DNA from: a bacterium
GTDB taxonomy: Bacteria; Patescibacteriota; Minisyncoccia; Phycocordibacterales; JAGLPS01
DNA: 63,326 nt
Assembly (NCBI GenBank): GCA_030690305.1
Contig: JAUYHB010000022.1
Span: forward strand, 1-63,326
Direction of reading: 5' to 3'
Positions 46,174 through 63,185 of this stretch are shown one piece after another. A model generated the notes under the pieces. That model was given only the letters and a program-made list of their open reading frames with translations. It searched no databases and had not been told where the DNA came from. How positions within the stretch are numbered: position 1 is the stretch's first letter; each line of letters starts with the position of its first letter. Both the position numbers and the translations under genes were made by a program.

Positions 46174-46176
46174 TAT

Positions 46177-46247
46177 TGCCGGATCGTCTAATGGTAGGAC
46201 ATGGGCCTTTGAAGCCTAGTATCTTGGTTCGAATCCAAGTCCGGCAG
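46177..46247 (+). tRNA. tRNA-Gln (anticodon UUG)
   Basis: TGCCGGA...TGGGC-CTTTGAA-GCCTA...TTGGT-TCGAATC-CAAGT-CCGGCA-G. Confidence 0.8.
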
Positions 46248-46321
46248 TCAATAAGATTTTTTTCCAGTAAAAACTCGATAATAATCATTAAAAAAAAGGT
46301 ATCAAATGCTACCCTGTTTTG

Positions 46322-46330
46322 TGCTATAGT
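46322..46330 (+). promoter_or_regulatory. Extended -10 box TGCTATAGT upstream of the AIPR gene
   Basis: Same box type as other promoters in the window. Confidence 0.4.
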
Positions 46331-46346
46331 TTTGGTGCATTTGCGA

Positions 46347-46362
46347 TTCCAAGTACGGCAGT
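46347..46362 (+). repeat. Partial duplicate of the tRNA-Gln 3' end
   Basis: TTCCAAGTACGGCAGT versus ATCCAAGTCCGGCAGT (46233-46248): 14 of 16 identical. Confidence 0.7.
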
Positions 46363-46363
46363 T

Positions 46364-46380
46364 CCGAAAACTGATAAACA
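46364..46380 (+). repeat. Left copy of the island-border motif CCGAAA..T.AT.AACA
   Basis: CCGAAAACTGATAAACA versus CCGAAAGTTATCAACA at 50245-50260. Same orientation, 13 of 17 aligned positions match. Confidence 0.45.
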
Positions 46381-46387
46381 GTGAATT

Positions 46388-48082
46388 ATGACATCAATAT
46401 TAGAAAATTTTATAAAAGCAATCAGTGATAAATACAAAATTTCGTTAAACGAAGCTTTTGAAATTTTGTCCATGTTCTCCATATTAGGCCGTCCTTTGGA
46501 TGAGATATATAAGGAATATTGGGTGGCAGGTACGAATGACGGCGGTATCGATGGTATTTACATAGATGAAGATACGGGGAATGTACATATCTTTCAATCA
46601 AAAAATTCAAAACAACTTAAACAAAAAGATATTCAAAAATTTAAAAGCGACTACAAAAATTTTTTCGAATCTGGAAACACATCTAATATTGAAATTAACG
46701 AAAAAATTCAGGCTTTTATTGATGAGATAAAAGATTTTGGTGAGAAAGGGAGAATCCTAAAACCTATTCTTTATTTCTGTTACTCAGGAGAAAATACTGA
46801 TCCCCCAAATGCAAAAATATTTAAAAAATTCGCTAAGCTAGTGGGTAATCCTCCTTTTTTTATTAAGGATTCAGTATTACTTATAGAAAATTTAAAATCT
46901 TTGCAGGGAATACAAAGATCTTCAATAGTTGAGTTTTCCTTCCACCCAGTCTCAAGTGAAATATACCCTGGGGAACAAGCAATTTTCTCGTTCTACACTC
47001 AACAAATTAAAGCCGCAAATTTCCGAATAAGTGCTATTGAACTCTGTAAGTTAATTGATGAAGAAAAAAGTAAAAATGGTACCATAGACACGTTATTCTC
47101 TGAAAATATCAGAGGTTATCTAAAGGTAAATAAGACCAACAAAAAAATACTTGAAACACTTCTTGATTCATCTAAAAGAAGTTTCTTCCCTTTTTTGAAT
47201 AATGGTCTTACTTTTATTTGTGAAAATATGCAAATTCCAGCTCAACCGCAGGTAAACATTTTTCTTCTAAGTGTGAAAAATCCATTAATTGTTAATGGGC
47301 AACAAACTGCTCGCATGATTTACAAAATTTACACAGAGAAAGGGGAGAAAACACTTGATAAAGTTTATCTAACAGTTCGGGCTTATGAAACTAAGGAGAA
47401 TCGTCTCATAGACATGATTACTGAAGCGACAAATACTCAAACCACAATCAACTTTCGTGATCAAATGAGTAACAAGCACTTTAATCATTGGGCTCGTATA
47501 ATGTTTGCCTCTAAAAAAGTAACCTATATAGCAAAACGCGGAGAGATACTTAACCCTAATCCTTTGGAGGGGGAATTGTCTGAATCAGTAGCAAATGACA
47601 CTGTTCTTAAGTTTTGGTATGCGACCTATCATGAAGATCCTCACACTGCAAAAACTTCAAAATCTCGTGTTCTAGAATCAATTTTTCTTGCGACAAAAGA
47701 AGAAAACCCCTCTTTAGCAAAGCTATTTTCTGGAAATCCAAATTCTCCTGTCTACTCCCAGCTTTATAATGCGTATCAAATTTACAAGTTAGTATTAGAG
47801 AAAAGGAAAATCATTGAAAGTAAAAAACAAACTGACTTGGAATACATATTTCATGCTGATGAATTAATCTGCTACGGAATATATAAAAAATTACAAAAAA
47901 AGAAAAAATTAAAAAATCTTTCAAGTATAAATATTGAATCTTTATACGAAGAAGTTCGGTCAATAATTAATGAAGTTGTTAAAGAAGAAAAAGTTAACCT
48001 CGGGGAGGTATATGCACATTCAAAATATTTTAAAAGTGAAGGAATACTTGAGGATTATAAGTTAAAAGCAGGAATAAAATAA
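46388..48082 (+). CDS. AIPR-family abortive-infection protein with an N-terminal Mrr-like nuclease motif
   Basis: 564 aa and very AT-rich. GTNDGGIDGIYIDEDTGNVHIFQSKNSK (D...QxK nuclease-like), followed by NNGLTFICEN and IVNGQQTARMIYK, typical of AIPR proteins. Confidence 0.7.
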   Translation: MTSILENFIKAISDKYKISLNEAFEILSMFSILGRPLDEIYKEYWVAGTNDGGIDGIYIDEDTGNVHIFQSKNSKQLKQKDIQKFKSDYKNFFESGNTSNIEINEKIQAFIDEIKDFGEKGRILKPILYFCYSGENTDPPNAKIFKKFAKLVGNPPFFIKDSVLLIENLKSLQGIQRSSIVEFSFHPVSSEIYPGEQAIFSFYTQQIKAANFRISAIELCKLIDEEKSKNGTIDTLFSENIRGYLKVNKTNKKILETLLDSSKRSFFPFLNNGLTFICENMQIPAQPQVNIFLLSVKNPLIVNGQQTARMIYKIYTEKGEKTLDKVYLTVRAYETKENRLIDMITEATNTQTTINFRDQMSNKHFNHWARIMFASKKVTYIAKRGEILNPNPLEGELSESVANDTVLKFWYATYHEDPHTAKTSKSRVLESIFLATKEENPSLAKLFSGNPNSPVYSQLYNAYQIYKLVLEKRKIIESKKQTDLEYIFHADELICYGIYKKLQKKKKLKNLSSINIESLYEEVRSIINEVVKEEKVNLGEVYAHSKYFKSEGILEDYKLKAGIK

Positions 48083-48123
48083 AGAACCTTCTGTATTTTT
48101 TAAAAATTTTTATATAAACCTAC

Positions 48124-48753
48124 ATGATACCGAAAAAGAAAATTAATCTAAGTGGAGAGAGTATTTTTAAAGACCTAGCAAAAGAATTAATACCGCATAG
48201 AGAGAAACCTATTGGGTCCATGCTTTTCATTGTAGAAGGTACTCAATTAGAGCCTCGTGTAGGAATACGTTATCCTGGTAGAAAACTCAGGCGAAGAACT
48301 GAAATAAAAAGAGCTAATAAAAGTACCGTTCTTTGGGCTAATCTCCTAGATTTTGAAGTTATTCCCTTTGAAAATGGGCAACCAGGAACATCAATACAAT
48401 TCACATATACAAATTTACTTAAAGACTTCGAGGATTATAAAAAGAAAGACAATGAATTTTGGGATATGATTTTGGAACTTCATAGACGCAATCAAATTAC
48501 TAAAATTCCCCCAAATCTTGGAGGAATTGAACCAAAGTTGTTTTTAGAGATGCTTAAGTGGATGTGGATACAGGAAGATGTTAACTATAAACTATCGCAT
48601 AGCGATGTAGGGTCCCCATTAAAGTATAGACTAGAAACTAGAAGCCAAAAGCCAACAGGGAAAGGCGCAGGAAGAGACAAATTTTTTGCAGCGCTAATTT
48701 TAGTCAAAGAAGGTCATTTTTCTGCTGGAGAAATCAAAAAAATTATACCTTAA
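48124..48753 (+). CDS. Hypothetical protein (209 aa), island-specific
   Basis: No motif I can name. Weak D/E...E-x-K-like patch WIQEDVNYK. The 3' end overlaps the convergent LexA-MTase gene by 11 nt. Confidence 0.55.
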   Translation: MIPKKKINLSGESIFKDLAKELIPHREKPIGSMLFIVEGTQLEPRVGIRYPGRKLRRRTEIKRANKSTVLWANLLDFEVIPFENGQPGTSIQFTYTNLLKDFEDYKKKDNEFWDMILELHRRNQITKIPPNLGGIEPKLFLEMLKWMWIQEDVNYKLSHSDVGSPLKYRLETRSQKPTGKGAGRDKFFAALILVKEGHFSAGEIKKIIP

Positions 48754-50209
48754 AAAAGTCATACGATTGTCTTTTTCCCATTACTAACTTATGCTCAGGG
48801 GCAATCTCTCCATTTGTTAGTCTTTTGTTTATAATATCGCAATATTTTTTATCAATTTCTGCAGATATAAACTGACGATTTAAATTTCTACACACATCTA
48901 TTTCTGCACCACTACCTCCGAAGAGCGTAAAAACTACGTCTTTTGGTTTTGTTGATGCTTTAATCAACATCCCTGTTAGTTTTTGAGGAATTTGGCAGGC
49001 ATGATATGTTTTTTCCTTGCTTACATTTTTAACAAGGTTGAATTCAAACCAAGAGTAGGGCATCCTACCTTTTGAACCATTTGCTAGATTTTGTTGAATC
49101 CTTTTGTCTGTTGGATTTTTGTATGGTAGTGCAACCCCATCTTTAAAAAATTTATTATTAACATTTTTTCTTACATGTAAAATACTTCTATGGGCTGTAG
49201 TAAATCTCTTAGGCGTATGTCCAACATTTGTGTTGTAAACCCAAACATATTCATGGATATTTGGGAAATATGAATCTAGATATTTAACACGAAGATGTGC
49301 ATTCTGCTGTGGATAATTCATCATAAAAAGATTACCGTCTTCTTTAAGCACACGCATTGATTCCTTGGCAAGTTCTATATACCAGTTTATGTAATCTTCG
49401 AATTTTTTTGTGTAATTATTTTTACCGTATTTAATTCCAACGTTGTAATCAGGATCTCCAAAAATCATATCCACGCTGTTATCTGGTAGATCTTTCAAAA
49501 CATGCATTACATCACCGTTGTAAACTCTGTTTAAATAATCGGACATCTTATCTTTTCGTTGAACATTTTTCTTTACAGGCAAAATAAAAGTTTGAGACGT
49601 TTTCTTTATTTCATTTGTTTTTACTACATCAAGTAAAATACCTTGTACAGTTAACTGCTGGTCATTTTTAATTATTATTGGCTGATAATTTTTGTTTGCT
49701 GGTTGTAATCTAATCTGCCCCTTTTCTTTGTAGAAAGTTTTAAGTGTTGCTTCATTTCCATTAAGCAGTGCAACTACCTTGTCTCCATTTTCAGCAACAT
49801 TTTGTTTTTTTATCAGAATCGTATCTCCGTTATTTATTCCTTCATCAATCATACTGTCACCTTGTACTCGGAGGGCATATAATTCACCTGATTTTGAGAT
49901 TTTATTTTTTGGTATTGCAATATTTTCTTTTTCTTCTTCAAAAATATGTATAGGTTCTCCAGCTGATATTGTCCCAAGAAGGGGAATGCTAACCATTGCT
50001 TGCGAAGACGTAATTTCAACCCCACGAATTTTATTCTTCTCTTTTTTAAGATATCCACCCTCTCTTAATTCTTCAAGGTGTTGGTGAATAGTTGATACAG
50101 CCAGGTTAAGGTGCTTAGCAATTTCTTTAATTGAAGGTGAAAATCCTTTTTGTTGATTATAAAAATCTAAAAAATCTAAAAGTTGTTTTTTACGAGGAGT
50201 AAGTCCCAT
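48743..50209 (-). CDS. Fusion protein: full-length LexA repressor (wHTH + S24 autopeptidase) joined to a beta-class N6-adenine/N4-cytosine DNA methyltransferase
   Basis: LexA part: LTPRKKQLLDFL...SIKEIAKHL (wHTH), cleavage site ISAGEPI, catalytic GDSM, and Lys in EATLKTFY. MTase part: motif IV FGDPDYNVG upstream, motif I TLFGGSGAE near the C-terminus (beta order). ATG 50209 preferred; the track start at 50218 is TTG. Confidence 0.8.
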   Translation of the reverse strand: MGLTPRKKQLLDFLDFYNQQKGFSPSIKEIAKHLNLAVSTIHQHLEELREGGYLKKEKNKIRGVEITSSQAMVSIPLLGTISAGEPIHIFEEEKENIAIPKNKISKSGELYALRVQGDSMIDEGINNGDTILIKKQNVAENGDKVVALLNGNEATLKTFYKEKGQIRLQPANKNYQPIIIKNDQQLTVQGILLDVVKTNEIKKTSQTFILPVKKNVQRKDKMSDYLNRVYNGDVMHVLKDLPDNSVDMIFGDPDYNVGIKYGKNNYTKKFEDYINWYIELAKESMRVLKEDGNLFMMNYPQQNAHLRVKYLDSYFPNIHEYVWVYNTNVGHTPKRFTTAHRSILHVRKNVNNKFFKDGVALPYKNPTDKRIQQNLANGSKGRMPYSWFEFNLVKNVSKEKTYHACQIPQKLTGMLIKASTKPKDVVFTLFGGSGAEIDVCRNLNRQFISAEIDKKYCDIINKRLTNGEIAPEHKLVMGKRQSYDFFKV

Positions 50210-50217
50210 GTAATACA

Positions 50218-50260
50218 ATTATATCTAAATAGACCGAAAATAAACCGAAAGTTATCAACA
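50218..50260 (-). promoter_or_regulatory. LexA-MTase promoter region with tandem direct repeats
   Basis: Minus strand reads TGTTGATAAC-TTTCGGTTTAT-TTTCGGTCTAT-ttaga-TATAAT, then 8 nt, then ATG. The 11-mer TTTCGGT(T/C)TAT is repeated in tandem across the -35/spacer. Confidence 0.45.
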
Positions 50261-50363
50261 TTCAGTCATTTTGCACTAAAATAAAGTCCCACAAAATCCT
50301 CCCCTTGCTTTTTAGGACATAAAAGTGCACACTTATCAATAGCTATACTAATTAACACTATAT

Positions 50364-50918
50364 ATGGGAAATTTTGACCGTGGCGGGGGAGGCCGCTTTG
50401 GCGGGGATAGAGGAGGCAGGGGATTCGGCGGAAGAGATTCCGGCGGAGGAAGAAGCTGGGGAGGAGGAAAGCCATGGGACAAACAGGTTACCATGCACCA
50501 AGCTGTCTGCAGTAATTGCGGAAACAAGTGCGAAGTGCCTTTTAAGCCGAACGGCTCCAAGCCCGTGCTCTGCAATGACTGTTTTTCAAAGGCCAAAGCA
50601 GGAGGCGCTCCCGGAGGCAATTTTTCTCCAAGGAGAGATTCCAGGGATGGAGGTGGTTCAAGAGATTCCGGTTTTGCACCCTCTTATACGCCCTCATATC
50701 AGCCTTCTCAACCTCAAGGGGGAGACAAGAGAATCGATGACCTTAAAAGGCAATTGGATGTCGTAAACAGCAAGCTCGACACTTTGATTAAGGGAATGGA
50801 GAAAGCGGCTCTTGCCGAAATGTCCCTCGAAGAGAAAAAAACAACTCTCAAAAAATTGGTGAAAAAAGCTACTGCACCAAAAAAGACTGAGACAAAGACC
50901 GAGACAAAAAAGAAATAA
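50364..50918 (+). CDS. RGG-rich zinc-ribbon protein with a coiled-coil and Lys-rich tail
   Basis: GGGGRFGGDRGGRGFGGRDSGGGRSWGGG, then CSNCGNKCEVPFKPNGSKPVLCNDC (CxxC-x17-CxxC), then a coiled region and a KKTETKTETKKK tail. Confidence 0.6.
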   Translation: MGNFDRGGGGRFGGDRGGRGFGGRDSGGGRSWGGGKPWDKQVTMHQAVCSNCGNKCEVPFKPNGSKPVLCNDCFSKAKAGGAPGGNFSPRRDSRDGGGSRDSGFAPSYTPSYQPSQPQGGDKRIDDLKRQLDVVNSKLDTLIKGMEKAALAEMSLEEKKTTLKKLVKKATAPKKTETKTETKKK

Positions 50919-50946
50919 AAAAACGCCTCACTATGAGGCGTTTTTT
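50918..50946 (+). terminator. Intrinsic terminator
   Basis: AAAAAACGCCTCA-cta-TGAGGCGTTTTTT. Confidence 0.8.
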
Positions 50947-50954
50947 GTTACAAT
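50946..50954 (+). promoter_or_regulatory. Extended -10 box TGTTACAAT
   Basis: Ends 6 nt before ATG 50961. Confidence 0.45.
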
Positions 50955-50960
50955 ATAGTT

Positions 50961-51503
50961 ATGTTCATGGCTTTCTACTCAAAGCATAAACTCGTTCTGG
51001 GGCTTGTTTTTGCTTTCATACTCCTACTCGGAACCATTCTTTCCTTTGGTTTATCAAAAAATAACGAAATTGCCTGCACGACGGAAGCGAAACTGTGCCC
51101 CGACGGCTCTGCTGTCGGAAGAACAGGACCTCTATGCGAATTTGCAAAGTGCCCCGGGGGAGGCAACGGTGGAACTGTCGGGGAATTTTGGGGCAATATT
51201 CTCGGCAACGTTCTCCTTGGTCCGACATGTCCCGTCATGATGGATCCTCCCGACCCCCGATGCGCCGATAGGCCCTATCAAACCCAACTTGTTCTTACGA
51301 CCGTCGATCAATTACGCGTAATCAAGGAGTTCAGTTCCGACAAAGACGGCAAATTCAACATTGAAGTGCCGCCGGGAGAATACATAATTCGTTCCGCCGC
51401 GGCGGCAAACATCCTTCCATACTGCGCCTCAAACAATACGATTAAAGTGAATGCAAATACGTCCGTCGAGGTAACTGTCGGTTGTGATACCGGGATTAGA
51501 TAA
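50961..51503 (+). CDS. Membrane-anchored/secreted hypothetical protein with a carboxypeptidase-regulatory-like beta domain
   Basis: One TM segment. Contains SSDKDGKFNIEVPPGEYIIRS. Confidence 0.45.
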   Translation: MFMAFYSKHKLVLGLVFAFILLLGTILSFGLSKNNEIACTTEAKLCPDGSAVGRTGPLCEFAKCPGGGNGGTVGEFWGNILGNVLLGPTCPVMMDPPDPRCADRPYQTQLVLTTVDQLRVIKEFSSDKDGKFNIEVPPGEYIIRSAAAANILPYCASNNTIKVNANTSVEVTVGCDTGIR

Positions 51504-51601
51504 GTGGTTTTTTTATGTAGGATTTTTCTTGACGCATAAGGTTTTTTCTCGTATTCTAAGAAATGCCTCGGCCGCGAGGCGTTTTGTTTTATATAAAAAT
51601 T

Positions 51602-53425
51602 ATGGAAATTCGCAACATCGCAATTATCGCCCACGTTGACCACGGTAAAACGACACTTACCGACGCTTTGATGCGTCAAACAGGCGCCGCTGTCGAAGGG
51701 GTTTCAATGGACTCAAATGACCTTGAACTTGAGCGCGGAATTACCATATACGCCAAAAACGCGGCTATTTTCTATCCTTCTGCAGACTCGGGACGCCCCG
51801 TAACAAAAATAAATATTGTAGATACCCCCGGCCATGCCGACTTCGGCTCGGAAGTGGAGCGCGTCTTGCGTTCCATCGATTCCGTGCTTTTGGTTGTGGA
51901 TGCCCAGGAAGGCCCGATGCCCCAAACCCGCTTTGTTCTCAAAAAATCTCTTGAGCTCGGTATTAAACCGATTGTCGTCATAAACAAAATTGATAAACAG
52001 GCGGCAAACCCGGCGCGCTGTGAGGAGCAAGTGCTCGAACTTTTTCTTGAACTCGGTGCCACGCATGAACAGGCGAGTTTCCCCGTCGTCTATGCCATCG
52101 GCCGCGAGGGTGTCGCTAAACTCAAACTCGAAGATGAAGCGAAAGACCTCACACCTCTTCTGGAAACTATTCTCAAATACGTCGCCCCCGCGTCAAACGC
52201 TTCTTCAGAGGCGTCGCTCATGCTTCAGCCATTCAATTTGGGGTATGACAATTTCATGGGCCGTCTTGCTGTCGCGCGCGTGTATGAAGGGACGGTGTTA
52301 CCCGGACAGAGTGTGTTTGTAAAAAAGCCCAATGGCGAAACACGAACGGGAAAAATCACAAAAATTTTCACATTCAACGGATTGCAAAGAATCGATGCAG
52401 ACAAAGCGACGGCGGGGGATATCGCCCTTGTCGCCGGCCTTCCCGACATCGATATCGGAGAAACGGTAACCGACAACGAAGCGGCAACACCACTGCCCGC
52501 CATTGCCGTTGACGAACCGACCATCAAACTTAATTTTCTCGTCAACAATTCTCCGTTCGGAGGACGCGACGGGAAATTCGTCACATCGCGCCAGATACGC
52601 GAACGCCTGGAACTTGAACTTGAAGTAAATGTCGGCTTGCGTGTTGATTTTTCTTCAACCGACAGTTTTTCCGTATCGGGACGCGGGGAATTGCACGTTG
52701 CCATTCTGCTTGAAAATATGCGCCGTGAAGGATATGAACTTCAGGTTTCCCAGCCGCAGGCGATTATCCGCGAAGAAAACGGAGTTAGGCTTGAACCGTT
52801 TGAAGAAGTAATTGTTGATACGCCGGCCGAATACCAGGGCATTGTCATAGAACGCCTGAGCATGCGTGGTTTTATACTGAAAAATATGCTCGCGCACGGA
52901 CACGGAGACGCAACACGCCTGTTTTTTGAAGGTCCGACACGCGGACTTTTGGGATACCGAAACCAGTTTGTTATAGACACAAAGGGTGAGGGAATTCTCT
53001 CCTCCCGTTTTGTCGGTTTCAATCCGTATGCCGGAGAAATCAGAAAACGAATCGTCGGCTCGATGACTTCTATGGCGACGGGCAAAGCCCTCGGTTTTTC
53101 TTTGTGGAATTTGCAGGAACGCGGAGTACTTTACATCGGCCCGTCGGCGGAAGTGTATGAAGGAATGGTTATCGGCAATACCACGAAAGGGGAGGAACTT
53201 TTCGTAAACCCGACCAAAGGAAAAAATCTCACCAATGTTCGCGCGGCAGGAACGGATGAAGCTATCAATCTTGTGCCTCCGTTTACACTTTCTATTGAAC
53301 GTGGACTTGAAATAATGTCGGAAGATGAATATCTGGAAATCACTCCCAAGAACGTACGCTTGCGCAAACAACTTTTGACTGACCTTGACCGTTCGCGCGC
53401 CCGCCGAAAAGACGGCACACTCTAA
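51602..53425 (+). CDS. typA: Translational GTPase TypA/BipA
   Basis: MEIRNIAIIAHVDHGKTTLTD, DTPGHADF and NKIDK, with EF-G-like domains. Confidence 0.93.
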   Translation: MEIRNIAIIAHVDHGKTTLTDALMRQTGAAVEGVSMDSNDLELERGITIYAKNAAIFYPSADSGRPVTKINIVDTPGHADFGSEVERVLRSIDSVLLVVDAQEGPMPQTRFVLKKSLELGIKPIVVINKIDKQAANPARCEEQVLELFLELGATHEQASFPVVYAIGREGVAKLKLEDEAKDLTPLLETILKYVAPASNASSEASLMLQPFNLGYDNFMGRLAVARVYEGTVLPGQSVFVKKPNGETRTGKITKIFTFNGLQRIDADKATAGDIALVAGLPDIDIGETVTDNEAATPLPAIAVDEPTIKLNFLVNNSPFGGRDGKFVTSRQIRERLELELEVNVGLRVDFSSTDSFSVSGRGELHVAILLENMRREGYELQVSQPQAIIREENGVRLEPFEEVIVDTPAEYQGIVIERLSMRGFILKNMLAHGHGDATRLFFEGPTRGLLGYRNQFVIDTKGEGILSSRFVGFNPYAGEIRKRIVGSMTSMATGKALGFSLWNLQERGVLYIGPSAEVYEGMVIGNTTKGEELFVNPTKGKNLTNVRAAGTDEAINLVPPFTLSIERGLEIMSEDEYLEITPKNVRLRKQLLTDLDRSRARRKDGTL

Positions 53426-53454
53426 AACGTCTTTATTTGCTAGAATATATAGGT

Positions 53455-53565
53455 ATGCGCGACTTTTTTAACTTACAGAAAAATGGAGCAGTGCTTGCCA
53501 TCATATTTTTTATCGTACTTGGCGTTGCAATAGGGCTGGTGGCATATTGGCAATTAAGCGAATAG
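53455..53565 (+). CDS. Possible 36-aa single-TM micropeptide
   Basis: MRDFFNLQKNGAVLAIIFFIVLGVAIGLVAYWQLSE. Below the ORF-track cutoff. No clear SD. Confidence 0.25.
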   Translation: MRDFFNLQKNGAVLAIIFFIVLGVAIGLVAYWQLSE

Positions 53566-53652
53566 AATCCCGACCCCGCGGAAGACCGAATGGCCTAACT
53601 CTCGAACTCTAAACATTTTTTTTAAAAAAAAGTAACGCGGGTTTCTTTTCGT

Positions 53653-53661
53653 TGCTATAAT
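53653..53661 (+). promoter_or_regulatory. Extended -10 box TGCTATAAT of the phosphorylase gene
   Basis: Ends 7 nt before ATG 53669. Confidence 0.5.
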
Positions 53662-53668
53662 AAAACGA

Positions 53669-55318
53669 ATGAAGCATGGACCGTGTGTCGCCTATTTCTC
53701 GATGGAAGTTGCGTTTGCAACTCATATGCCCAACTATGCGGGGGGCTTAGGTATTCTTGCCGCGGACACGATAATGTCGGCGGCCGACATGGGAACAAAC
53801 GTTGTCGGCATTTCTCTTCTGTATCACCAACATGACAATCCCGAATACATGTTTCGCGGAGAGCGTTATCTGACGCGCCGCACGGAAACCGTTGAGGTGG
53901 AAATCGAAGGAAGGAAAGTAAAAATCGCCATATGGCAAAAAGAAATCATCGGGCGGAGCGGAGCTGTCGTGCCGATTTTTTTCTTGAGTTCGTATCTTCC
54001 TGAAAACGAGAAATGGGACCGCGACCTTACCAAGCATTTATACGCCACCGACCGCTACACGCGTCTCGGGCAGGAAGTCATATTGGGCGTTGGCGGAGTG
54101 CGCGCTCTTGAAGCGCTCGGATACGACAAAGTTCACACGTACCATTTAAACGAAGGACACGCGGCATTCGCCACCTTCGAGTTATTGCGCAGGCATAATT
54201 ACAATGAAAAGAAAGTGCGTTCGCTTGTGACATTCACGACGCACACGCCGATTCCGGCCGGACACGATTATTTCGATTACGGACTTGCGGGGAATGTTTT
54301 GCGGGAGATGATGCCGTTAAACATACGGGACTTTGCGGGGCAGGACGCTCTCGGCATGACGCAACTTGCGATGCATTTGTCCAAAAGCACGAACAGCGTT
54401 TCCAGGCGCCACCAAAAAGTCTGCGAAGAAATGTTCCTGGGAAAGAAAATCGCAAATGTTACCAACGGCATTTACGCGCCGCGCTGGGCGGGGGACTTCA
54501 TGACCGAATTGTTCAACGCGCATTTGCCGGGCTGGGATGAAAATCCCGACGAGTTCAAAGAGGCCGTAAAAAAATTACCCTCGCGCGCGCTTCGCGACAC
54601 GAAGATATTCGAGAAAAACGAATTGACGAATTGGATTAATTTCAACAAAACATTTTTCTCGGTTACGAATATTTCACGGGACGACTTTCTGAAAAACGAC
54701 ACGCTTACCATAGGATTCGCGAGGCGTTTCGTTCCGTACAAACGGCCCGACCTTATTTTCAAAGACCTCGACCGTTTGGGAAATCTTTCCCGCAACACGG
54801 TTCAACTTGTATTTGCCAACCGTTGTCACCCCGACGATTTTTATTGCAATGACCTGCGGGCAAAACTCAACGGGTATGGAGAAAAATTGCGCGGCAAAGT
54901 CAAAATCGTTCTTATTCCCGATTACGACATTAAAATTGCCAAAAAGCTCGTGGCAGGATGCGATATCTGGCTCAATACCCCGGTATCACCCCTTGAAGCA
55001 AGTGGCACAAGCGGCATGAAAGCGGCCCTCAATGGGGCGTTAAACGTCTCTACGCGCGATGGCTGGTGGCTCGAGGGATTGGAGAAGGAACCCCTAAGCG
55101 GTTGGGGATTCGGAGGGAAAGAAAGTTTTCCGAACGAACAGGCGCGTGATGAAGCGGAGGGGAAAGAACTTATGGAGGCCCTTGAAGAGGCGGCAAACTG
55201 TTATTATAAAACTCCCGACAAATGGGTTGAACGGATGAAGCACGCTATTACACTTACGGAATTTTTCAATACAAGCCGGCTTGTTAAGGAATACTCGAAA
55301 AATATTTGGAACAGATAA
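53669..55318 (+). CDS. glgP: Alpha-glucan (glycogen/maltodextrin) phosphorylase, GT35 short form
   Basis: YAGGLGILAAD, HLNEGHAAF, and the PLP site EASGTSGMKAALNG. Confidence 0.85.
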   Translation: MKHGPCVAYFSMEVAFATHMPNYAGGLGILAADTIMSAADMGTNVVGISLLYHQHDNPEYMFRGERYLTRRTETVEVEIEGRKVKIAIWQKEIIGRSGAVVPIFFLSSYLPENEKWDRDLTKHLYATDRYTRLGQEVILGVGGVRALEALGYDKVHTYHLNEGHAAFATFELLRRHNYNEKKVRSLVTFTTHTPIPAGHDYFDYGLAGNVLREMMPLNIRDFAGQDALGMTQLAMHLSKSTNSVSRRHQKVCEEMFLGKKIANVTNGIYAPRWAGDFMTELFNAHLPGWDENPDEFKEAVKKLPSRALRDTKIFEKNELTNWINFNKTFFSVTNISRDDFLKNDTLTIGFARRFVPYKRPDLIFKDLDRLGNLSRNTVQLVFANRCHPDDFYCNDLRAKLNGYGEKLRGKVKIVLIPDYDIKIAKKLVAGCDIWLNTPVSPLEASGTSGMKAALNGALNVSTRDGWWLEGLEKEPLSGWGFGGKESFPNEQARDEAEGKELMEALEEAANCYYKTPDKWVERMKHAITLTEFFNTSRLVKEYSKNIWNR

Positions 55319-55327
55319 ACATATAAT

Positions 55328-56101
55328 ATGGAACGCCTGAAAAAACTAATCATCTTCGATTTGGACGGCACGCTCGCCCAAAGCAAGATGCTGCCGGACG
55401 GGGAAATGACGGCGATTCTCTGTGACCTGCTTATGAAAACAAATGTTGCCGTAATATCGGGAGCTTCTTTCAAACAATTCAAGGACCAGTTTCTCACCAC
55501 GTTGTTGATGTGCGCCGAAGCGCTTTCCCGACTGTATATAATGCCGGCGAACGGAAGCAGTCTGTATCAGTCCGGACAAGGCGGTTGGAAATCCGTATAC
55601 GAAGAATTACTTCCGAAAGAAGACAGGATAAAAATCAAGCAAGCGATTGAGCAGGCGATCGCCACTGCCGGTATTCCTTTGCCGCAGCGGGTACACGGAG
55701 AGTTGATTGAAGACCGGGGAAGTCAGGTTACATATTCCGCGTGCGGACAAGACGCTCCGCTTGAAGTGAAAAGCGTGTGGGACCCCGACCATGCCAAACG
55801 CCAGAGAATAAAAAAAATACTCGTGTCTCTCCTTCCCGATTTTGAAGTCCGCATTGCCGGCACAACGTCGATTGACGTGACAAAAAAGGGAATTGATAAA
55901 GCATATGGCATCAGAAAAATCGGCGAACACCTCAACATCCCCATAGACGAAATGCTATTCGTGGGCGACGCGGTGTTCCCCGGAGGAAACGATTATTCCG
56001 CGAAAGAGCTTGGTGTGGAAACGATTCAGGTATCGGGCCCGGATGAAACAAAAAAAATTATCGATGATTTGCTGAGAAAGCACGTCAATGAATCGCACTA
56101 G
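55328..56101 (+). CDS. HAD-IIB family hydrolase/phosphomutase-like
   Basis: IIFDLDGTLAQS, VISGASF and FVGDAVFPGGNDY. Confidence 0.7.
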   Translation: MERLKKLIIFDLDGTLAQSKMLPDGEMTAILCDLLMKTNVAVISGASFKQFKDQFLTTLLMCAEALSRLYIMPANGSSLYQSGQGGWKSVYEELLPKEDRIKIKQAIEQAIATAGIPLPQRVHGELIEDRGSQVTYSACGQDAPLEVKSVWDPDHAKRQRIKKILVSLLPDFEVRIAGTTSIDVTKKGIDKAYGIRKIGEHLNIPIDEMLFVGDAVFPGGNDYSAKELGVETIQVSGPDETKKIIDDLLRKHVNESH

Positions 56102-56921
56102 CACATCTTTTCCCGCGCTCCTTCTCGGTTTGTTTTTCTTTTGTTACTCCATTTCCGGATTTTATTACATTGCCGTTTTTTCCAAACCCGTGCGACCGTT
56201 TCCGGACGAAAGCATTGTCATTGAGAAAAAAGAAAAGGAAATTGCCGTTCCCAAAACCGTGGCGGATATTGTAACCCCCGAAAGGGAAGTACAAACATAT
56301 ATTCCGCCCGCACCGTCGGCTTCTCCTCCTTCCTTGTCGCAGGTAGCATATCCGAAACCCTCACCCGAACCCGCGCCGACTCCATTGCCGACGGAAATCT
56401 CGGTTAGTGCCAATGTCACATATTCAACGTCAACTATTTACTATGACATTTATGGACTGACCGAAAACGAATTGCGCGCGGAGATGAGCGCCAAAGGACC
56501 GTCATATTCGGACGGTAAACGATATGACGGATTCACTTCCCGTTATTACACCTGGAAATATTTTCCCGCATGGGACGGGAAAAACTGTTATCCGAACGAG
56601 GTGTATGTGACCGTGGGAATAAAAATGACGCTTCCTCAATGGATGTGGTATATAAACGGAGGGGAATCTCTTAAAACAAAATGGACGAATTACATGAACG
56701 TTTTGATTTATCATGAGAGCGGGCATGTGGATATCAATATCAGAGGCGCGGACGATTTATACCAAAGGCTTATTAATGCGGGTCCATACCCGAATTGCGG
56801 GCAATTGGATACCGCACTGCACCAGATTGCAAACACTTTTTATAACGATATCGGAATTCAAAATGAAGCCTATGACGCTATAACGAACCACGGGGAAACC
56901 CAAGGCGCCGTGTTTCCCTGA
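56088..56921 (+). CDS. Putative secreted zinc metallopeptidase (HExxH)
   Basis: TM anchor, Pro-rich linker, and LIYHESGHVDI (HExxH). Confidence 0.5.
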   Translation: MNRTSTSFPALLLGLFFFCYSISGFYYIAVFSKPVRPFPDESIVIEKKEKEIAVPKTVADIVTPEREVQTYIPPAPSASPPSLSQVAYPKPSPEPAPTPLPTEISVSANVTYSTSTIYYDIYGLTENELRAEMSAKGPSYSDGKRYDGFTSRYYTWKYFPAWDGKNCYPNEVYVTVGIKMTLPQWMWYINGGESLKTKWTNYMNVLIYHESGHVDINIRGADDLYQRLINAGPYPNCGQLDTALHQIANTFYNDIGIQNEAYDAITNHGETQGAVFP

Positions 56922-56939
56922 ATCTGATATTATTTGGGT

Positions 56940-57077
56940 ATGAAAAATAAAGACTGGTATTTGGGTTTCTTGGGCTTTCTGGGGTTTCTGGGCATGCCCG
57001 GACTTTTAACTCAAGACTGGATGGACGCCCTATGGCTTTTATGGTTTACCTGGTTTCTTTACTTTCTCAAAAAATAA
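56940..57077 (+). CDS. Possible 45-aa membrane micropeptide
   Basis: MKNKDWYLGFLGFLGFLGMPGLLTQDWMDALWLLWFTWFLYFLKK. Below the ORF-track cutoff. Confidence 0.3.
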   Translation: MKNKDWYLGFLGFLGFLGMPGLLTQDWMDALWLLWFTWFLYFLKK

Positions 57078-57100
57078 AGAAAAGCGGCCCAGTTACAAAG

Positions 57101-57145
57101 TTTTAGGCCTTTATATTTTGAAAAAAGGCCTAAAAGTGTTATAAT
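57101..57145 (+). promoter_or_regulatory. Promoter of the macAB-like operon with a flanking inverted repeat
   Basis: TTGAAA (57118-57123), 16 nt spacer, TATAAT (57140-57145), with a TGt extension. The inverted repeat TTTTAGGCCTTT/AAAGGCCTAAAA brackets the -35. Confidence 0.5.
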
Positions 57146-57154
57146 GAGGGGTAT

Positions 57155-58708
57155 ATGAAGAAAAAAATTCCTGCCTGGGTCAAAAAACCTATTTTCTATA
57201 TCCCCATTGCGATTGTTGTTATTATCGGCGCGATTATCATATTTTCAAGTGGGCAAAAACCTTCTACGACCGTTACCGCTAAAGCCGAAATCAAAAATCT
57301 CGAGCAGATTGTGAGTGTGACCGGAAATGTAAAACCCGCTTCTTTTGTAAATCTTGCTTTTGAAAGAGGCGGACGCGTGAGAAATATATACGCCGAGGTG
57401 AGCACGGAAGTATTTGCCGGACAAGTGCTTGTCACTCTGGAAAACGCCGATCTTGCCGCACAACTCGACCAGGCAAATGCGGGTGTAAAGGCCCAAGAAG
57501 CGAAACTCGCGCAATTGAAAGCGGGGGGTTCGCCGGAGAACATCGCAATCGCGAAAGTAGAGCTTCAGAATGCGAAAGACTCTCTTGAAGATGCCAAAAA
57601 AACAGCTTTTGATACGTTGGGCGAAGCTCTAACAACAATAGATGATGCTGTACGCAATAAGGCCGACGGTTTTTTCAGTAATCCGGAATCCACTTCACCT
57701 CATTTCAATTTGACCGTTGATTCAAATCTGAAGCTCAAAGTTGAGGCGGAACGAATCGCCGTGCAGCCTGTCTTGAATGAGAAAAACGGTTTTCCGACAT
57801 CAATGAGCGGTTTTGATTTTGATTTCCATTTCTCCAAAGCAAAAAGCAACTTAAGTGTGGTCAAAGTCCTTCTCGATGACCTTGCCGCGGCAGTAAACTC
57901 TCTTTCTGCGAATTCTTCTTTGAGTCAAACCACCATTGACTCTTACAAGTCGACTGTCTCAACCGCCCGTGCGACAATCGCCGGCCAAATCTCCGATGTG
58001 ACAACAGCCGAGAAATCCATCCGAAGCGCGCAAGCGACCGTAACCCTCGAGGAATCACAGTTGATGCTTGCACAGAATCCTGCCCGAACGGAAGAAATTC
58101 AGACACAGGAAGCGCTTGTGGAAGAAGCAAAGGCGAGCGCCGCAAATGCTCTTGCCCAACTTTCAAAAACAGTGCTTAGGTCTCCGATTAGCGGTGTTAT
58201 TACCAAGAAAAACATTGAAGTGGGAGAAATTATTTCCGCAAACAGCGCCGTCATGTCGGTTATTTCTTCCGACAGATTCGAAGTTGAAGCCAATGTTCCC
58301 GAAGCCGATATCGCGAAAGTTGCCGTTGGAAACGAAGCGACGGTTACACTTGACGCGTATGGAAGGGATTCGGTTTTCAAAACACAGGTTGTTGCCGTTG
58401 ATCCCGCCGAGACCGTCATTGAGGGAGTTTCGACCTATAAAATTACGCTTCAATTTATTGAAGAAGATGAACGAGTGCGTTCCGGAATGACCGCTAACAT
58501 AGATGTTGTAACGGGTCGCCGTGAAAATGTCCTAACGGTTCCCCAACGCGCGGTCATCCGTTCAAACGGCAATAGAATTGTCCGCGTTAAAATAGGCGAA
58601 ATCATTGAAGAAAGAAAAGTTGAAACGGGCTTAAGCGGATACGACGGTTCGATTGAAATACTTTCCGGTATCAAGGAGGGCGAGGAGGTCGTTGTCTTTG
58701 AACAGTGA
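57155..58708 (+). CDS. HlyD/MacA-family efflux adaptor protein
   Basis: N-terminal TM, a long coiled-coil hairpin, and barrel-sandwich/beta-barrel motifs (LRSPISGVITKKNIEVGE). Confidence 0.8.
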   Translation: MKKKIPAWVKKPIFYIPIAIVVIIGAIIIFSSGQKPSTTVTAKAEIKNLEQIVSVTGNVKPASFVNLAFERGGRVRNIYAEVSTEVFAGQVLVTLENADLAAQLDQANAGVKAQEAKLAQLKAGGSPENIAIAKVELQNAKDSLEDAKKTAFDTLGEALTTIDDAVRNKADGFFSNPESTSPHFNLTVDSNLKLKVEAERIAVQPVLNEKNGFPTSMSGFDFDFHFSKAKSNLSVVKVLLDDLAAAVNSLSANSSLSQTTIDSYKSTVSTARATIAGQISDVTTAEKSIRSAQATVTLEESQLMLAQNPARTEEIQTQEALVEEAKASAANALAQLSKTVLRSPISGVITKKNIEVGEIISANSAVMSVISSDRFEVEANVPEADIAKVAVGNEATVTLDAYGRDSVFKTQVVAVDPAETVIEGVSTYKITLQFIEEDERVRSGMTANIDVVTGRRENVLTVPQRAVIRSNGNRIVRVKIGEIIEERKVETGLSGYDGSIEILSGIKEGEEVVVFEQ

Positions 58709-58709
58709 T

Positions 58710-59423
58710 ATGCCGCTTCTTGAAGTAGAAAACATTACGAAGGAATATGACGACGGGACGAAAGCGCTTCAAGGTGTTTCTTTTTCCATAAATAAAGGAG
58801 ACTTTGTGGCCATTATGGGTCCGTCAGGCTCCGGTAAATCAACGCTTCTTCACATTCTCGGTTTTCTCGACCAGCACACGAAAGGCGTATTTCGTTTTGA
58901 CGGGAAGACGGCGGAGGATTTTTCTCCTACGGAAATTGCGCATGTGCGAAACAAAAAAATGGGATTTATATTTCAAGCGTTTAACCTTTTGTCCCGCACA
59001 AGTGTTTTGGAAAACGTCAAACTGCCTCTTGTGTATTCAAGTGTGAAAGACGAAACGGTGCGGGAGGAAATGGCGTTAAAAGCGATAGAATCTGTCGGAT
59101 TGACACATCGTGTTCACCACCTCTCCTCACAGTTGTCCGGCGGGGAAAAACAACGTGTCGCCATTGCCCGCGCTCTTGTGAACAATCCCGATATTATTTT
59201 TGCCGATGAACCGACGGGAAACCTGGACTCAAAGTCTGGACAGATGGTTATGGAAATAATCCAGCGTTTAAACGAAGAGAAGGGGCATACGGTTATTTTG
59301 ATTACTCACGAAACATACACAGCCGAGCACGCTCAACGCATTATAAAAGTTTTTGACGGAAAAATAGAAAGCGACACCAAAGTGCTGAATCGACACCGTG
59401 CGGAAGAACACTTCACCAAATAA
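58710..59423 (+). CDS. ABC transporter ATP-binding protein (MacB/LolD type)
   Basis: GPSGSGKSTL, LSGGEKQRVAIARAL and IIFADEPTGNLD. Confidence 0.9.
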   Translation: MPLLEVENITKEYDDGTKALQGVSFSINKGDFVAIMGPSGSGKSTLLHILGFLDQHTKGVFRFDGKTAEDFSPTEIAHVRNKKMGFIFQAFNLLSRTSVLENVKLPLVYSSVKDETVREEMALKAIESVGLTHRVHHLSSQLSGGEKQRVAIARALVNNPDIIFADEPTGNLDSKSGQMVMEIIQRLNEEKGHTVILITHETYTAEHAQRIIKVFDGKIESDTKVLNRHRAEEHFTK

Positions 59424-59424
59424 C

Positions 59425-60669
59425 ATGACACTTACAGACAGCTTTAAAACCGCGCTCACAGGACTCAGGACGAATAAATCCCGTTCGATTTTAACGACCC
59501 TGGGAATCGTCATCGGTATTTCCTCAATTATTTTGATGATGTCTATCGGCCAGGGAGCGGAAGGACTCATTTTGGGTGAAATCAGCGGACTTGGGGCGGA
59601 AACGATTGTCATACGTCCGGGAAAAGAGCCGAGTGGTCCGAGTGACTTCGCGGAACTGCTTTTTTCGAACTCCCTCAAAAAACGCGACCTTGAATCGCTT
59701 TTAAAGAAAAGCAATGTCCCTTTGCTTGTTGAGGCGGTACCGGCCATGATTGTTCCCGGAACCGTATCCTACGAAGGCGAAACATACCGTGCCACGGTAT
59801 TCGGTTCGGATGTAAACTTTTTTGCAAAAACATTCAATGTGTATCCCGACAGGGGCGGCACGTTCAGCGAGGACGACATTCGGGAGAATGCAAGCGTCGT
59901 TGTCATCGGTTCGAAAGTTGCCGAGGAATTGTTCGGTGCTTCGGACCCTCTCGGAGAATTTATAAAAATCAAAGACAGAAAGTTCAGGGTGGTTGGTATT
60001 TTCCCGAAAAAAGGGCAGGTCTCTTTTTTCAATTTTGACGAAATGGTGATTATGCCGTATACGACCGCACAGGTGTATGTTCTCGGCATTGACCATTATC
60101 ACGAAATTATTACCAGGGCCGAGCGTCCGGAAGACGTCGACAGGACCGTACACGATATCGAACTGACATTGCGTGAGAATCACAACATCACCAATCCGAA
60201 GGATGACGATTTCTATATACAAACTCAGCAGGGAGCCGTAGACCAGATAAAAACCATTATCGGCGCGCTGACGGCGTTCCTTTCATCAGTTGTCGCAATT
60301 GCGCTTGTTGTCGGGGGCATTGGGGTGATGAACATCATGCTTGTTTCCGTTACGGAACGCACGCGCGAAATCGGTTTGCGCAAGGCAATAGGGGCAACGG
60401 AGCGCGACATTCTTCTCCAATTTTTGTTTGAGGCGGTTATTCTTACCGCTGTCGGAGGAATAGTGGGCATCCTGCTCGGTGCCAGCCTGTCTTTCATCGC
60501 TTCCATTATTCTCACGACCGTTGTCCAACTCAACTGGCATTTCACTTTCCCGGTCTTTGCGGCAGTCTTGGGCTTCAGTGTATCCGCGGTGGTGGGTCTT
60601 GTGTTTGGAATTTATCCGGCAAAACAGGCGGCAGCCAAGAGTCCGATAGAGGCTTTGCGATACGAATAG
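59425..60669 (+). CDS. ABC transporter permease (MacB/FtsX type)
   Basis: MacB periplasmic domain plus a C-terminal FtsX 3-TM module (ERTREIGLRKAIGA). Confidence 0.88.
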   Translation: MTLTDSFKTALTGLRTNKSRSILTTLGIVIGISSIILMMSIGQGAEGLILGEISGLGAETIVIRPGKEPSGPSDFAELLFSNSLKKRDLESLLKKSNVPLLVEAVPAMIVPGTVSYEGETYRATVFGSDVNFFAKTFNVYPDRGGTFSEDDIRENASVVVIGSKVAEELFGASDPLGEFIKIKDRKFRVVGIFPKKGQVSFFNFDEMVIMPYTTAQVYVLGIDHYHEIITRAERPEDVDRTVHDIELTLRENHNITNPKDDDFYIQTQQGAVDQIKTIIGALTAFLSSVVAIALVVGGIGVMNIMLVSVTERTREIGLRKAIGATERDILLQFLFEAVILTAVGGIVGILLGASLSFIASIILTTVVQLNWHFTFPVFAAVLGFSVSAVVGLVFGIYPAKQAAAKSPIEALRYE

Positions 60670-60782
60670 TTTTTTTGGCATTCTGGATATAGAGATAACC
60701 GAAAAAGACGAAACGGGGTCGGCAAGGCTCCGTTTTCCTTTGTGGTACAATGAAGGCAATTAAAGGTTAATTTCAAATTACC

Positions 60783-61016
60783 ATGATGTACTGGGGATAT
60801 GGATATGACCAGATGGGATGGGGGGCTTTTCACGGACTCTTTATGTTCTTCTTTTGGTTTTTGGTCATAGCTTTTTTTGTTCTTCTCATTAAAAAACTGA
60901 GCGGTTCCAACCGCGGAGCGGGGGAAAATAAAGCGCTAGGGATTCTCCAGGAACGATATGCCCGAGGAGAAATAGGCAAGCAGGAATTTGAAGAAAAGAA
61001 GAAAGACTTGATGTAA
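60783..61016 (+). CDS. SHOCT-domain small membrane protein
   Basis: One TM segment, then LQERYARGEIGKQEFEEKKKDL. Confidence 0.65.
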   Translation: MMYWGYGYDQMGWGAFHGLFMFFFWFLVIAFFVLLIKKLSGSNRGAGENKALGILQERYARGEIGKQEFEEKKKDLM

Positions 61017-61019
61017 TCA

Positions 61020-61451: not shown

Positions 61452-61467
61452 CGTGTGCGTATGTGAT

Positions 61468-62427: not shown

Positions 62428-62442
62428 AAACTTAATTCCAAT

Positions 62443-63174: not shown

Positions 63175-63185
63175 AATTGTTTTGG

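Follow-up and report, generated by a model that had tools for sequence, protein, structure and literature searches.

A LexA-fused DNA methyltransferase and its convergent neighbour in an AT-rich island of a Patescibacteria genome: a candidate damage-responsive restriction-modification pair

Why would a DNA methyltransferase (MTase) carry a complete LexA repressor, and with which of its neighbours does it work? The question is raised by an AT-rich island at positions 46250-50363 of contig JAUYHB010000022.1 (assembly GCA_030690305.1, a bacterium of the Patescibacteriota), of which a stretch of 63,326 nucleotides, called the window below, was analysed here. The island holds exactly three substantial open reading frames (ORFs): ORF1 (46388-48082, + strand), coding for an AIPR protein; ORF2 (48124-48753, + strand), coding for a protein of 209 aa; and the LexA-MTase fusion gene (48743-50218, − strand), which converges on ORF2. 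In the original prediction for this DNA, the three genes formed a single, horizontally acquired defence module whose regulation could be coupled to DNA damage. We consider it probable that there are two modules instead, namely the AIPR gene and, next to it, a convergent restriction-modification (R-M) pair made of ORF2 and the fusion, in which the LexA-MTase would repress its own gene and could be cleaved upon DNA damage.

A Type II restriction enzyme is toxic to its own cell when methylation lags behind, and the balance between restriction (R) and modification (M) is a central question for these systems. The known ways of keeping this balance are C (control) proteins, MTases with small repressor domains, antisense RNAs and, in Type I systems only, damage-triggered proteolysis. 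If our reading is true, a self-cleaving LexA carried by the MTase adds a DNA-damage input to the control of Type II systems.

The LexA-methyltransferase fusion and its convergent partner

The two genes of the pair and the parts of the fusion are as follows:
48743-50209, − strand: LexA-MTase fusion gene, 488 aa from the ATG at 50209 (the ORF listing starts at the TTG at 50218)
50021-50206, − strand: LexA winged-helix DNA-binding domain (PF01726 LexA_DNA_bind, 1.2e-12; residues 5-66, numbered from the TTG)
49958-49963, − strand: LexA autocleavage site Ala86-Gly87 (25/25 fusions; aligned to solved LexA structures)
49634-49984, − strand: Peptidase S24 (LexA C-terminal) domain (PF00717, 7.2e-33)
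49853-49855 and 49739-49741, − strand: Ser122 and Lys160, the catalytic dyad of the S24 domain, invariant
48779-49546, − strand: beta-class N6/N4 DNA methyltransferase domain, with motif IV (DPDY) followed by motif I (FGGSG)
48124-48753, + strand: ORF2, 209 aa, member of an uncharacterised family, putative Type II restriction endonuclease (from gene context)

Against the lexA model TIGR00498, the fusion scores 173 bits (cut-off 110.95), and its residues 4-201 align with solved LexA structures (3k2z, 1jhh and others); the recognition helix of the LexA domain reads S42-T-I-H-Q46-H. The MTase domain, which starts at about residue 225, matches the PADLOC model MTase_II PDLC03337 (4.9e-120) and Pfam PF01555 N6_N4_Mtase (9.6e-35). 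With three Pfam domains and the TIGR00498 score, the prediction of a DNA methyltransferase carrying a whole LexA repressor is borne out, and searches with hidden Markov models (HMMs) uphold the AIPR, LexA and MTase assignments alike. Among 25 aligned fusions, Ala86-Gly87, Ser122 and Lys160 are invariant in 25/25, as are MTase motifs IV and I, and variation is greatest in the DNA-binding domain. To judge from these unchanging catalytic residues, the LexA part is apparently cleavage-competent, which makes a coupling of the MTase to DNA damage plausible. As for the initiation codon, the ATG at 50209 (MGLTPRKK) is most likely the true start, rather than the TTG at 50218, since homologues begin MLT... 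and the TTG falls within the −10 hexamer described below.

The fusion is not a one-genome curiosity: full-length proteins with the same three Pfam domains fall into more than 120 clusters (90% identity clustering) at 66-98% identity, mostly from Patescibacteria, and dozens of species-level Patescibacteria genomes carry one. Their public names are either “transcriptional repressor LexA” or “site-specific DNA-methyltransferase”. Fusions of 480-490 aa, such as P0001, P0019, P0036, P0049, P0055 and the one of the window (48743-50218), are annotated simply as “transcriptional repressor LexA”, with the MTase half hidden, and such labels could mislead reconstructions of SOS regulons in candidate-phyla genomes. 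There are also variants devoid of S24, in which the winged helix alone is fused to the MTase (L032, L036, L082, L083 and L116; ORFs of 360-399 aa).

We examined the gene environment in two sets of loci. The first comprises 79 MTase-centred loci from species-representative genomes, retrieved via the alignment of the fusions; ~36 of them carry the fusion and ~43 the MTase part only, the latter in Armatimonadota, Anaerolineae, Ignavibacteria and other phyla at 60-70% identity. The second comprises 80 ORF2-centred loci from metagenomes, 74 of which could be evaluated for the MTase and 55 for the LexA fusion. Clustering the neighbouring ORFs of the MTase-centred loci gave the families c1, c2, c3 and c5. 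A convergent downstream gene always accompanies the fusion gene, either from the ORF2 family (c1, ~210 aa, 22 loci) or from c3 (13 loci); in the window, the 3' end of the fusion gene overlaps ORF2 by 11 bp, tail to tail. Upstream of the stand-alone MTases, and in the same orientation, one finds c2 (22 loci) or c5 (4 loci). The c2 protein consists of DUF6996 plus DUF6997 and matches a Type II restriction-enzyme model of PADLOC (6.5e-18), and c5 shows remote homology to ORF2 (hhalign E 3.4e-5 over 109 columns), with the motifs RYP(G/V), DF(E/K)V and LKW..ED.(N)Y common to both.

Homology between c1 and c3 is not significant. Since c3 stands in the same convergent position as ORF2, we take this as a case of the restriction-enzyme exchange that is usual among related systems; c3 would presumably serve the same MTase family as a restriction enzyme in place of ORF2. 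The c3 proteins (~280-310 aa; L002-L007, L010, L012, L013, L015, L018, L031 and L033, e.g., L012:4456-5292) have no match in Pfam or PADLOC and share an invariant LALNEDVKxHTLG motif. ORF2 and c3 are, in this respect, two unannotated candidate restriction-enzyme families.

Seen from ORF2, the MTase is convergent and immediately downstream in 72/74 evaluable loci; apart from a single locus, the gap between the two genes is −19 to +89 bp. The LexA fusion is carried by 53 of the 55 loci that reach far enough to show it. The “209-aa orphan” of the original prediction is no bystander but an obligate convergent partner of the MTase. In about 37 of 86 loci, a gene coding for an HTH_3 protein of ~73 aa, which matches the “Control_protein” models of PADLOC, ends 1-8 bp ahead of ORF2. 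These C genes are themselves preceded by two palindromes, for example AATCCCA-TTT-TGGGATT and then a weaker one, in the classic C-box layout. The palindromes lie within 110 nt before the C start (e.g., in L008, L011, L093 and L131-L134), a second lineage of C genes displays ATTCCAATTTGGCAT plus ATTCTATTATGGAAT, and decayed remnants of a C gene are seen ahead of ORF2 in L001, L014, L092 and L120.

ORF2 is very probably the restriction endonuclease of the pair, because of the C.R-type gene order convergent on M, the linkage to the MTase and the pairing of stand-alone MTases with a restriction-enzyme family or with an ORF2 homologue. We, thus, regard ORF2 and the LexA-MTase as a Type II R-M pair and as the conserved unit of the island. 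The relatives of ORF2, about 230 in number, are all labelled “hypothetical”; no family match was found in Pfam, PADLOC, NCBIfam or PHROGs nor by a sequence search of the PDB, and the ORF2 profile run against 1.84 billion representative proteins retrieved 44 clusters only, all of the same family and of ~200 aa or fragments. One has to keep in mind that families evolving fast and devoid of detectable relatives are usual among Type II restriction enzymes; the lack of relatives therefore neither helps nor hurts the assignment. The AlphaFold model of ORF2, built with 30 homologues, is confident (pLDDT 83.9, pTM 0.84). Acidic residues E38, D76-x-E78 and E151-D152 are invariant and might, as a conjecture, make up a nuclease site; one may speculate that E38 and D76-x-E78 are of the PD-(D/E)XK kind.

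As to the recognition site, no palindrome is avoided as strongly as GATC in the host sequence of the window (1-46249 and 50364-63326), with 50 occurrences observed for 179 expected (z −9.6; observed/expected (O/E) ratio 0.28), and it is also the most avoided one in the pooled flanks of the c1, c3 and c5 loci (O/E 0.36, 0.34 and 0.06, respectively). These counts are suggestive of GATC as the top candidate, in a comparison made without a control set and for an avoidance that is widespread and not specific to this R-M system. CCGG is avoided in the host part of the window too (211 observed, 341 expected), which suggests that the host has been under past pressure from restriction systems with GATC and CCGG specificities.

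Putative operator and DnaA-box-like element of the fusion promoter

Three elements lie upstream of the fusion gene in the window:
50218-50223, − strand: TATAAT −10 hexamer, 8 nt ahead of the ATG at 50209 (read from the sequence)
50234-50250, − strand: putative operator of the LexA domain, TTTCGG-N5-TTTCGG with an 11-bp period (TTTCGGTTTATTTTCGG), over the −35 and the spacer
50252-50260, − strand: degenerate DnaA-box-like motif TGTTGATAA (consensus TGTGGATAA, identical to TTATCCACA)

The 130 nt upstream of 34 fusion genes were aligned. A run of at least 7 identical bases is found at an offset of 11 in 27/34 promoters, against 1.4% of shuffles, and offsets of 8-10 and 12-14 give a repeat in 0 or 1 locus. 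This direct repeat adjoins or overlaps the −10 in the orthologous promoters. The layout of the −10 and the ATG, which is the same in L001, L002, L003, L004, L034 and L046, implies that the mRNA of the fusion would be leaderless or nearly so. In L036, one of the variants devoid of S24, the box, the TTTCGGG repeat, the −10 and the ATG keep the same layout; autoregulation, thus, appears to be the core function, and the S24 protease an add-on that can be lost. A generic scan of the island for sigma-70 promoters and terminators gave nothing above chance.

The repeat unit differs from locus to locus (TTTCGG, GCTCGG, GTTCGG, CTTCGG, TGTCGG, CTACGG, TTTCGC, TTTCGA or TTTCTA), and within a locus its two copies always vary in step. 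It tracks, in 34/34 loci, the residue that follows the conserved His in recognition helix 3 (residue 46): F or Y goes with TTTCTA or TTTCGA (14/14), and Q, E, D or K with CGG, CAG or CGC (20/20; Fisher p 7e-10, uncorrected for phylogeny). A finer trend associates H-E-H with CGGG and H-Q-H with CGGT. The covariation amounts to a specificity code for a LexA-type winged helix, with Q/E going with CGG and F/Y with CTA or CGA. On the MTase tree, the two helix/operator classes are interleaved, the nearest MTase relative belonging to the other class for 15/31 loci; the DNA-binding domain and its operator therefore travel together as a cassette. A direct-repeat LexA box, GTTC-N7-GTTC, is documented for Alphaproteobacteria (PMC3323433), and the operators of L024 and L027 read GTTC-N7-GTTC exactly.

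Taken together, position, conserved geometry and helix covariation make the repeat the likely cognate operator, and the LexA domain of the fusion appears to repress its own promoter through it. The perfect TTTCGG-N5-TTTCGG occurs as a single copy in 63 kb, at the fusion's own promoter, and sites with 2 mismatches are at chance level. The idea of a wider LexA regulon in the window was rejected, because the operator has no second perfect copy there and the rest of the window contains neither recA nor lexA.

The second element of the fusion promoters is TGTGGATAAC, the reverse complement of TTATCCACA, which we take to be the consensus DnaA box. In either orientation, this element stands 5-20 bp ahead of the direct repeat. 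A perfect TTATCCACA is present in 26/34 fusion promoters, i.e., 5.7 per kb against 0.09 per kb locus-wide, and near the stand-alone MTases its density is 0.017 per kb. Loci with a consensus TTGACx −35 tend to be without the box. Two other roles were tried for TTATCCACA, that of a generic promoter element and that of the MTase target; both were rejected, as it is rare elsewhere, absent at stand-alone MTase loci and free of any palindrome. The sole perfect TTATCCACA of the 63-kb window lies at 49308-49316 (− strand), within the MTase coding sequence, where it encodes a conserved N-Y-P-Q motif; it is probably a coincidence, because conservation at the DNA level is absent in most other loci.

The borders of the island and the AIPR gene

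The left part of the island holds the following features:
46176-46249, + strand: tRNA-Gln (anticodon TTG; ARAGORN), left edge of the low-GC island
46347-46362, + strand: partial copy of the tRNA-Gln 3' end (14/16 nt; TTCCAAGTACGGCAGT vs ATCCAAGTCCGGCAGT)
46388-48082, + strand: ORF1, AIPR/AbiU-like protein, 564 aa (Pfam AIPR PF10592, PADLOC AbiU)

The original prediction described a sharp drop in base composition right after tRNA-Gln, with 12 G+C in the first 60 nt of the AIPR ORF, and a return to normal at the gene for an RGG protein. All of this holds: the GC content falls directly 3' of tRNA-Gln, from ~0.47 to 0.27-0.36 across ~46250-50250 in 500-nt windows, and is back at 0.49 at the RGG gene; our recount of the 60 nt agrees. 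Over 46250-50363, GC is 0.322 against 0.462 for the remainder of the window, which places the island 10 sd under the mean of 256 windows of the same size (z = −10), the minimum among those being 0.428. Third-position GC (GC3) is 0.23-0.26 in the three island genes and 0.47-0.52 in the flanking dnaX-like, RGG and BipA genes. The R-M pair is, moreover, lower in GC than its own flanks in 14/14 long loci. The foreign composition of the segment is, thus, supported.

The ORF listing agrees with the predicted three genes and contains no integrase ORF in the island. The partial copy of the tRNA end, 98 bp downstream of tRNA-Gln, is possibly an integration scar, for which it is weak evidence, as at least 2 matches to the tRNA-Gln 3' end are also given by 9/100 shuffles; no copy of the tRNA end or other repeat was found at the right end of the island. 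Genomic islands targeted to a tRNA gene are marked by an integrase and, on both sides, by direct repeats that stem from the tRNA 3' end; both marks are lacking here. No empty site was found either, every other assembly of the same organism ending at or within the island. The breaks of the independent assemblies L161 (GCA_034375565.1, contig 14), L160 (contig 2), L162 and L164 (SRR13727534) fall at tRNA-Gln, inside the AIPR gene or just beyond the fusion gene. Such breaks fit with a presence/absence or a variation of the island at strain level in the sampled populations. On the right side, the gene that follows the island (50364-50918) codes for a protein of 184 aa with an N-terminal RGG/glycine-rich tract and has a host-like composition; a zf_Tbcl_2 zinc-finger match is listed for its orthologues in L160 and L164.

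ORF1 matches PF10592 with an E-value of 2.5e-37 (129.7 bits, cut-off 25), PADLOC AbiU with 8.8e-42 over residues 2-552 of 564, and the PHROG “Abi alpha-like” with 9.5e-38; a weak Mrr_cat match covers its residues 46-89 (E 0.054). Plasmid relatives annotated “AIPR family protein” are just 22-30% identical to it. ORF1 ends 41 bp ahead of ORF2, which has the same orientation, and no terminator is predicted in the gap; the two genes may be co-transcribed in this genome. Among the related loci, AIPR is found in 0/159 (79 MTase-centred and 80 ORF2-centred), and the site ahead of ORF2 is held elsewhere by the C-protein gene or by unrelated genes. ORF1 would, thus, be an independent, single-gene defence candidate of the AbiU/AIPR type that happens to stand beside the R-M pair in this genome. 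By the test of co-localisation in other genomes that came with the original prediction, the module of three genes fails; what stands of the “horizontally acquired defence module” is the foreign composition and the defence genes, not the three-gene unit. The whole is most aptly called a small defence island made of two separate modules, an AbiU/AIPR gene (46388-48082) and an R-M pair with a LexA-fused MTase (48124-50260).

Proposed regulation, rival readings and known systems

The domains, the conserved catalytic residues, the gene linkage and the covariation of helix and operator are observed here; from these, we infer the nuclease activity of ORF2, the repression, a RecA-dependent cleavage, the direction of its physiological effect and the binding of DnaA. 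The mechanism that we propose goes as follows. The fusion would dimerise via its S24 domain, bind its private TTTCGG-N5-TTTCGG over the −35 and the spacer, and repress its own promoter, and this self-repression would provide MTase homeostasis in the style of SsoII, Ecl18kI and EcoRII. Upon DNA damage, activated RecA would trigger self-cleavage at Ala86-Gly87, releasing the DNA-binding domain from the S24-MTase body; the promoter would then be derepressed and more MTase made. Stronger transcription of M would also run convergently into the R gene, as the 3' ends of M and R overlap by 11 bp and no terminator separates them. The net effect would be a chromosome protected while repair makes unmodified sites, i.e., a Type II counterpart of restriction alleviation. 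Self-restriction, or an imbalance between R and M, induces SOS and kills cells (PMC3874152); a damage-cleaved LexA-MTase would therefore act as a safety valve by negative feedback. The DnaA-box-identical site beside the operator would probably provide a second, host-derived input.

Several observations weigh against this mechanism or parts of it. Cleavage could equally cause a loss of MTase instead of an increase, and no recA or other SOS gene is seen in the window or in the loci. The role of ORF2 as a restriction enzyme comes from its gene context, with no nuclease fold or motif detectable in the protein: Foldseek run with the ORF2 model returns no significant neighbour, the best E being 1.6 in the PDB and 0.03 in BFVD, a set of predicted viral structures, where the hit is an uncharacterised phage protein. 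Two ORF2 homologues, in L146 and L158, are followed by 350-740 bp of sequence with no detectable MTase; these copies could be solitary, decayed or provided with a divergent partner. The system-bearing host L046 shows no avoidance of GATC. The copy of the window has no C gene, its DnaA-like box is degenerate, and the DPDY of its motif IV is a variant of the canonical DPPY. Lastly, the p value given above for helix and operator takes no account of phylogeny.

The main rival turns the same cleavage into a suicide switch, in which damage would lead to LexA-type cleavage, the S24-MTase fragment would be degraded as LexA fragments are by ClpXP/Lon, methylation would lapse, and the stable restriction enzyme would kill the cell, for abortive infection or post-segregational killing. 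Cleaved E. coli LexA exposes a VAA degron, and the cleaved fusion would end in a similar ...I-(A/S)-A; the cleavage residues are invariant, an Abi-type gene (AIPR) adjoins the pair in this genome, and R-M imbalance does induce SOS and kill cells (PMC3874152). We nevertheless find such a switch unlikely, since cleavage also derepresses the promoter so that synthesis rises, there is no sign here of an unstable MTase fragment, the variants devoid of S24 indicate that the system works without a switch, and the linkage to AIPR is not conserved. Those variants speak rather for S24 as a dimerisation module only, in an SsoII-like autoregulator with no response to DNA damage: in L032, L036, L082, L083 and L116, the MTase carries the DNA-binding domain without S24, behind a promoter of the same layout, and no recA is seen near any locus. 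This too we judge improbable, because dimerisation alone would not require Ala-Gly, Ser122 and Lys160, which are invariant in 25/25 fusions though the DNA-binding domains have diverged widely.

The remaining two readings concern what the fusion and its neighbours belong to. That the fusion is the master SOS regulator of the host, the sole LexA of a small genome, joined to an orphan methyltransferase for epigenetic control, with ORF2 as an unrelated accessory, is what the NCBI annotation “transcriptional repressor LexA”, the TIGR00498 equivalog score above its cut-off and the absence of another lexA in the 63-kb window would lead one to believe. We hold it to be very unlikely: the gene is part of a foreign, AT-rich island, its GC is below that of the flanks in 14/14 genomes, its operator specificity shifts between close relatives, which would be intolerable for a regulon-wide regulator, the sole perfect operator in 63 kb is that of its own promoter, the linkage to ORF2 or c3 is strict, and ordinary R-M pairs contain the same MTase devoid of LexA. 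Least credible of all, and close to being discarded, is the three-component system of AIPR, ORF2 and LexA-MTase. It can call upon the equally low GC of the three genes, the 41 bp between AIPR and ORF2 on the same strand without a predicted terminator and the Pfam description of AIPR proteins as frequent in R-M operons; it is contradicted by the 0/159 related loci with AIPR, by the C-protein or unrelated genes that hold its position elsewhere, and by the match of AIPR to the single-gene AbiU model over its whole length.

The reading of a self-repressing, damage-cleavable LexA-MTase within an R-M pair can be extended, tentatively and with clearly less conviction than we have in that reading, to a governor with two inputs: RecA-triggered cleavage would be combined with DnaA acting at the adjacent box, and the cassettes of DNA-binding domain and operator would be shuffled to avoid cross-regulation, like the incompatibility groups of C proteins. 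If true, this would be the first Type II, transcription-level counterpart of restriction alleviation, and methylation would be coupled to the replication status. Patescibacteria are reported to rely largely on R-M rather than on CRISPR, and a LexA-MTase governor, if it exists, could be a principal way for them to keep restriction safe.

How does the pair compare with known systems? With Type II R-M systems at large, it shares an MTase with catalytic and AdoMet-binding motifs; the separate restriction enzyme would be ORF2, adjacent and convergent in 72/74 loci and often behind a C gene, with no match to a nuclease family or fold. Convergent systems with C proteins (Esp1396I and the C.R operons of the PvuII type) likewise have an HTH_3 gene before R, two palindromic boxes and a convergent M, whereas here the control of M is built into the MTase instead of being delegated to C, and in the copy of the window, the C gene is gone. 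Related C proteins are known to cross-talk (PMC12707154); by analogy, the diversifying cassettes of DNA-binding domain and operator may play a role equivalent to that of the C-protein specificity groups. ORF1, for its part, matches AbiU over its full length and AIPR (PF10592), proteins often found in R-M operons according to Pfam, and differs from the annotated plasmid AIPR proteins by an identity of only 22-30%.

The closest precedents are the dual-function MTases M.SsoII, M.Ecl18kI and M.EcoRII, whose N-terminal DNA-binding domain binds an operator in their own promoter and represses their own gene (PMC3978073, PMC2760811, PMC12707154). The fusion resembles them in having a DNA-binding domain fused to the N-terminus of an MTase and, judging from position and covariation, an operator in its own promoter. 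They are, however, C5-cytosine MTases with a small HTH region (~70 aa), palindromic operators and divergent gene pairs, and no cleavable linker between their repressor and enzyme parts has been described; here, we have a beta-class N6/N4 MTase, a whole LexA with its autoprotease, a direct-repeat operator and convergent overlapping genes. To LexA itself (TIGR00498), the fusion is related by the Ala-Gly site, the Ser/Lys dyad, the winged helix and a full-length match above the cut-off, and the alphaproteobacterial box GTTC-N7-GTTC has the same direct-repeat geometry with an 11-bp period. Unlike an ordinary LexA, it is fused to an enzyme, sits on a mobile R-M module and has an operator specificity that varies between close relatives, and nothing in the 63-kb window points to a regulon that extends past its own promoter.

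In Type I systems, restriction alleviation after damage results from the proteolysis of HsdR by ClpXP (PMC12707154). The proposed logic is alike, i.e., tempering restriction or boosting protection when repair creates unmodified sites, but the Type I route is post-translational and uses a host protease, whereas the present one would act on transcription, the MTase cleaving off its own repressor domain. The same 2025 review of R-M systems (PMC12707154) covers both MTase-repressor fusions and restriction alleviation; it mentions no Type II equivalent of the latter and makes no mention of LexA, DnaA or Patescibacteria. No description of a LexA-MTase fusion was found in the literature searched, in agreement with the remark in the original prediction that this architecture was not recognised as described. 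Type II R-M systems with dual-function MTase repressors are, thus, already known; what appears to be new here is a complete LexA, apparently capable of self-cleavage, as the repressor module of an MTase, together with a direct-repeat operator that diversifies in step with the recognition helix and an adjacent site identical to a DnaA box.

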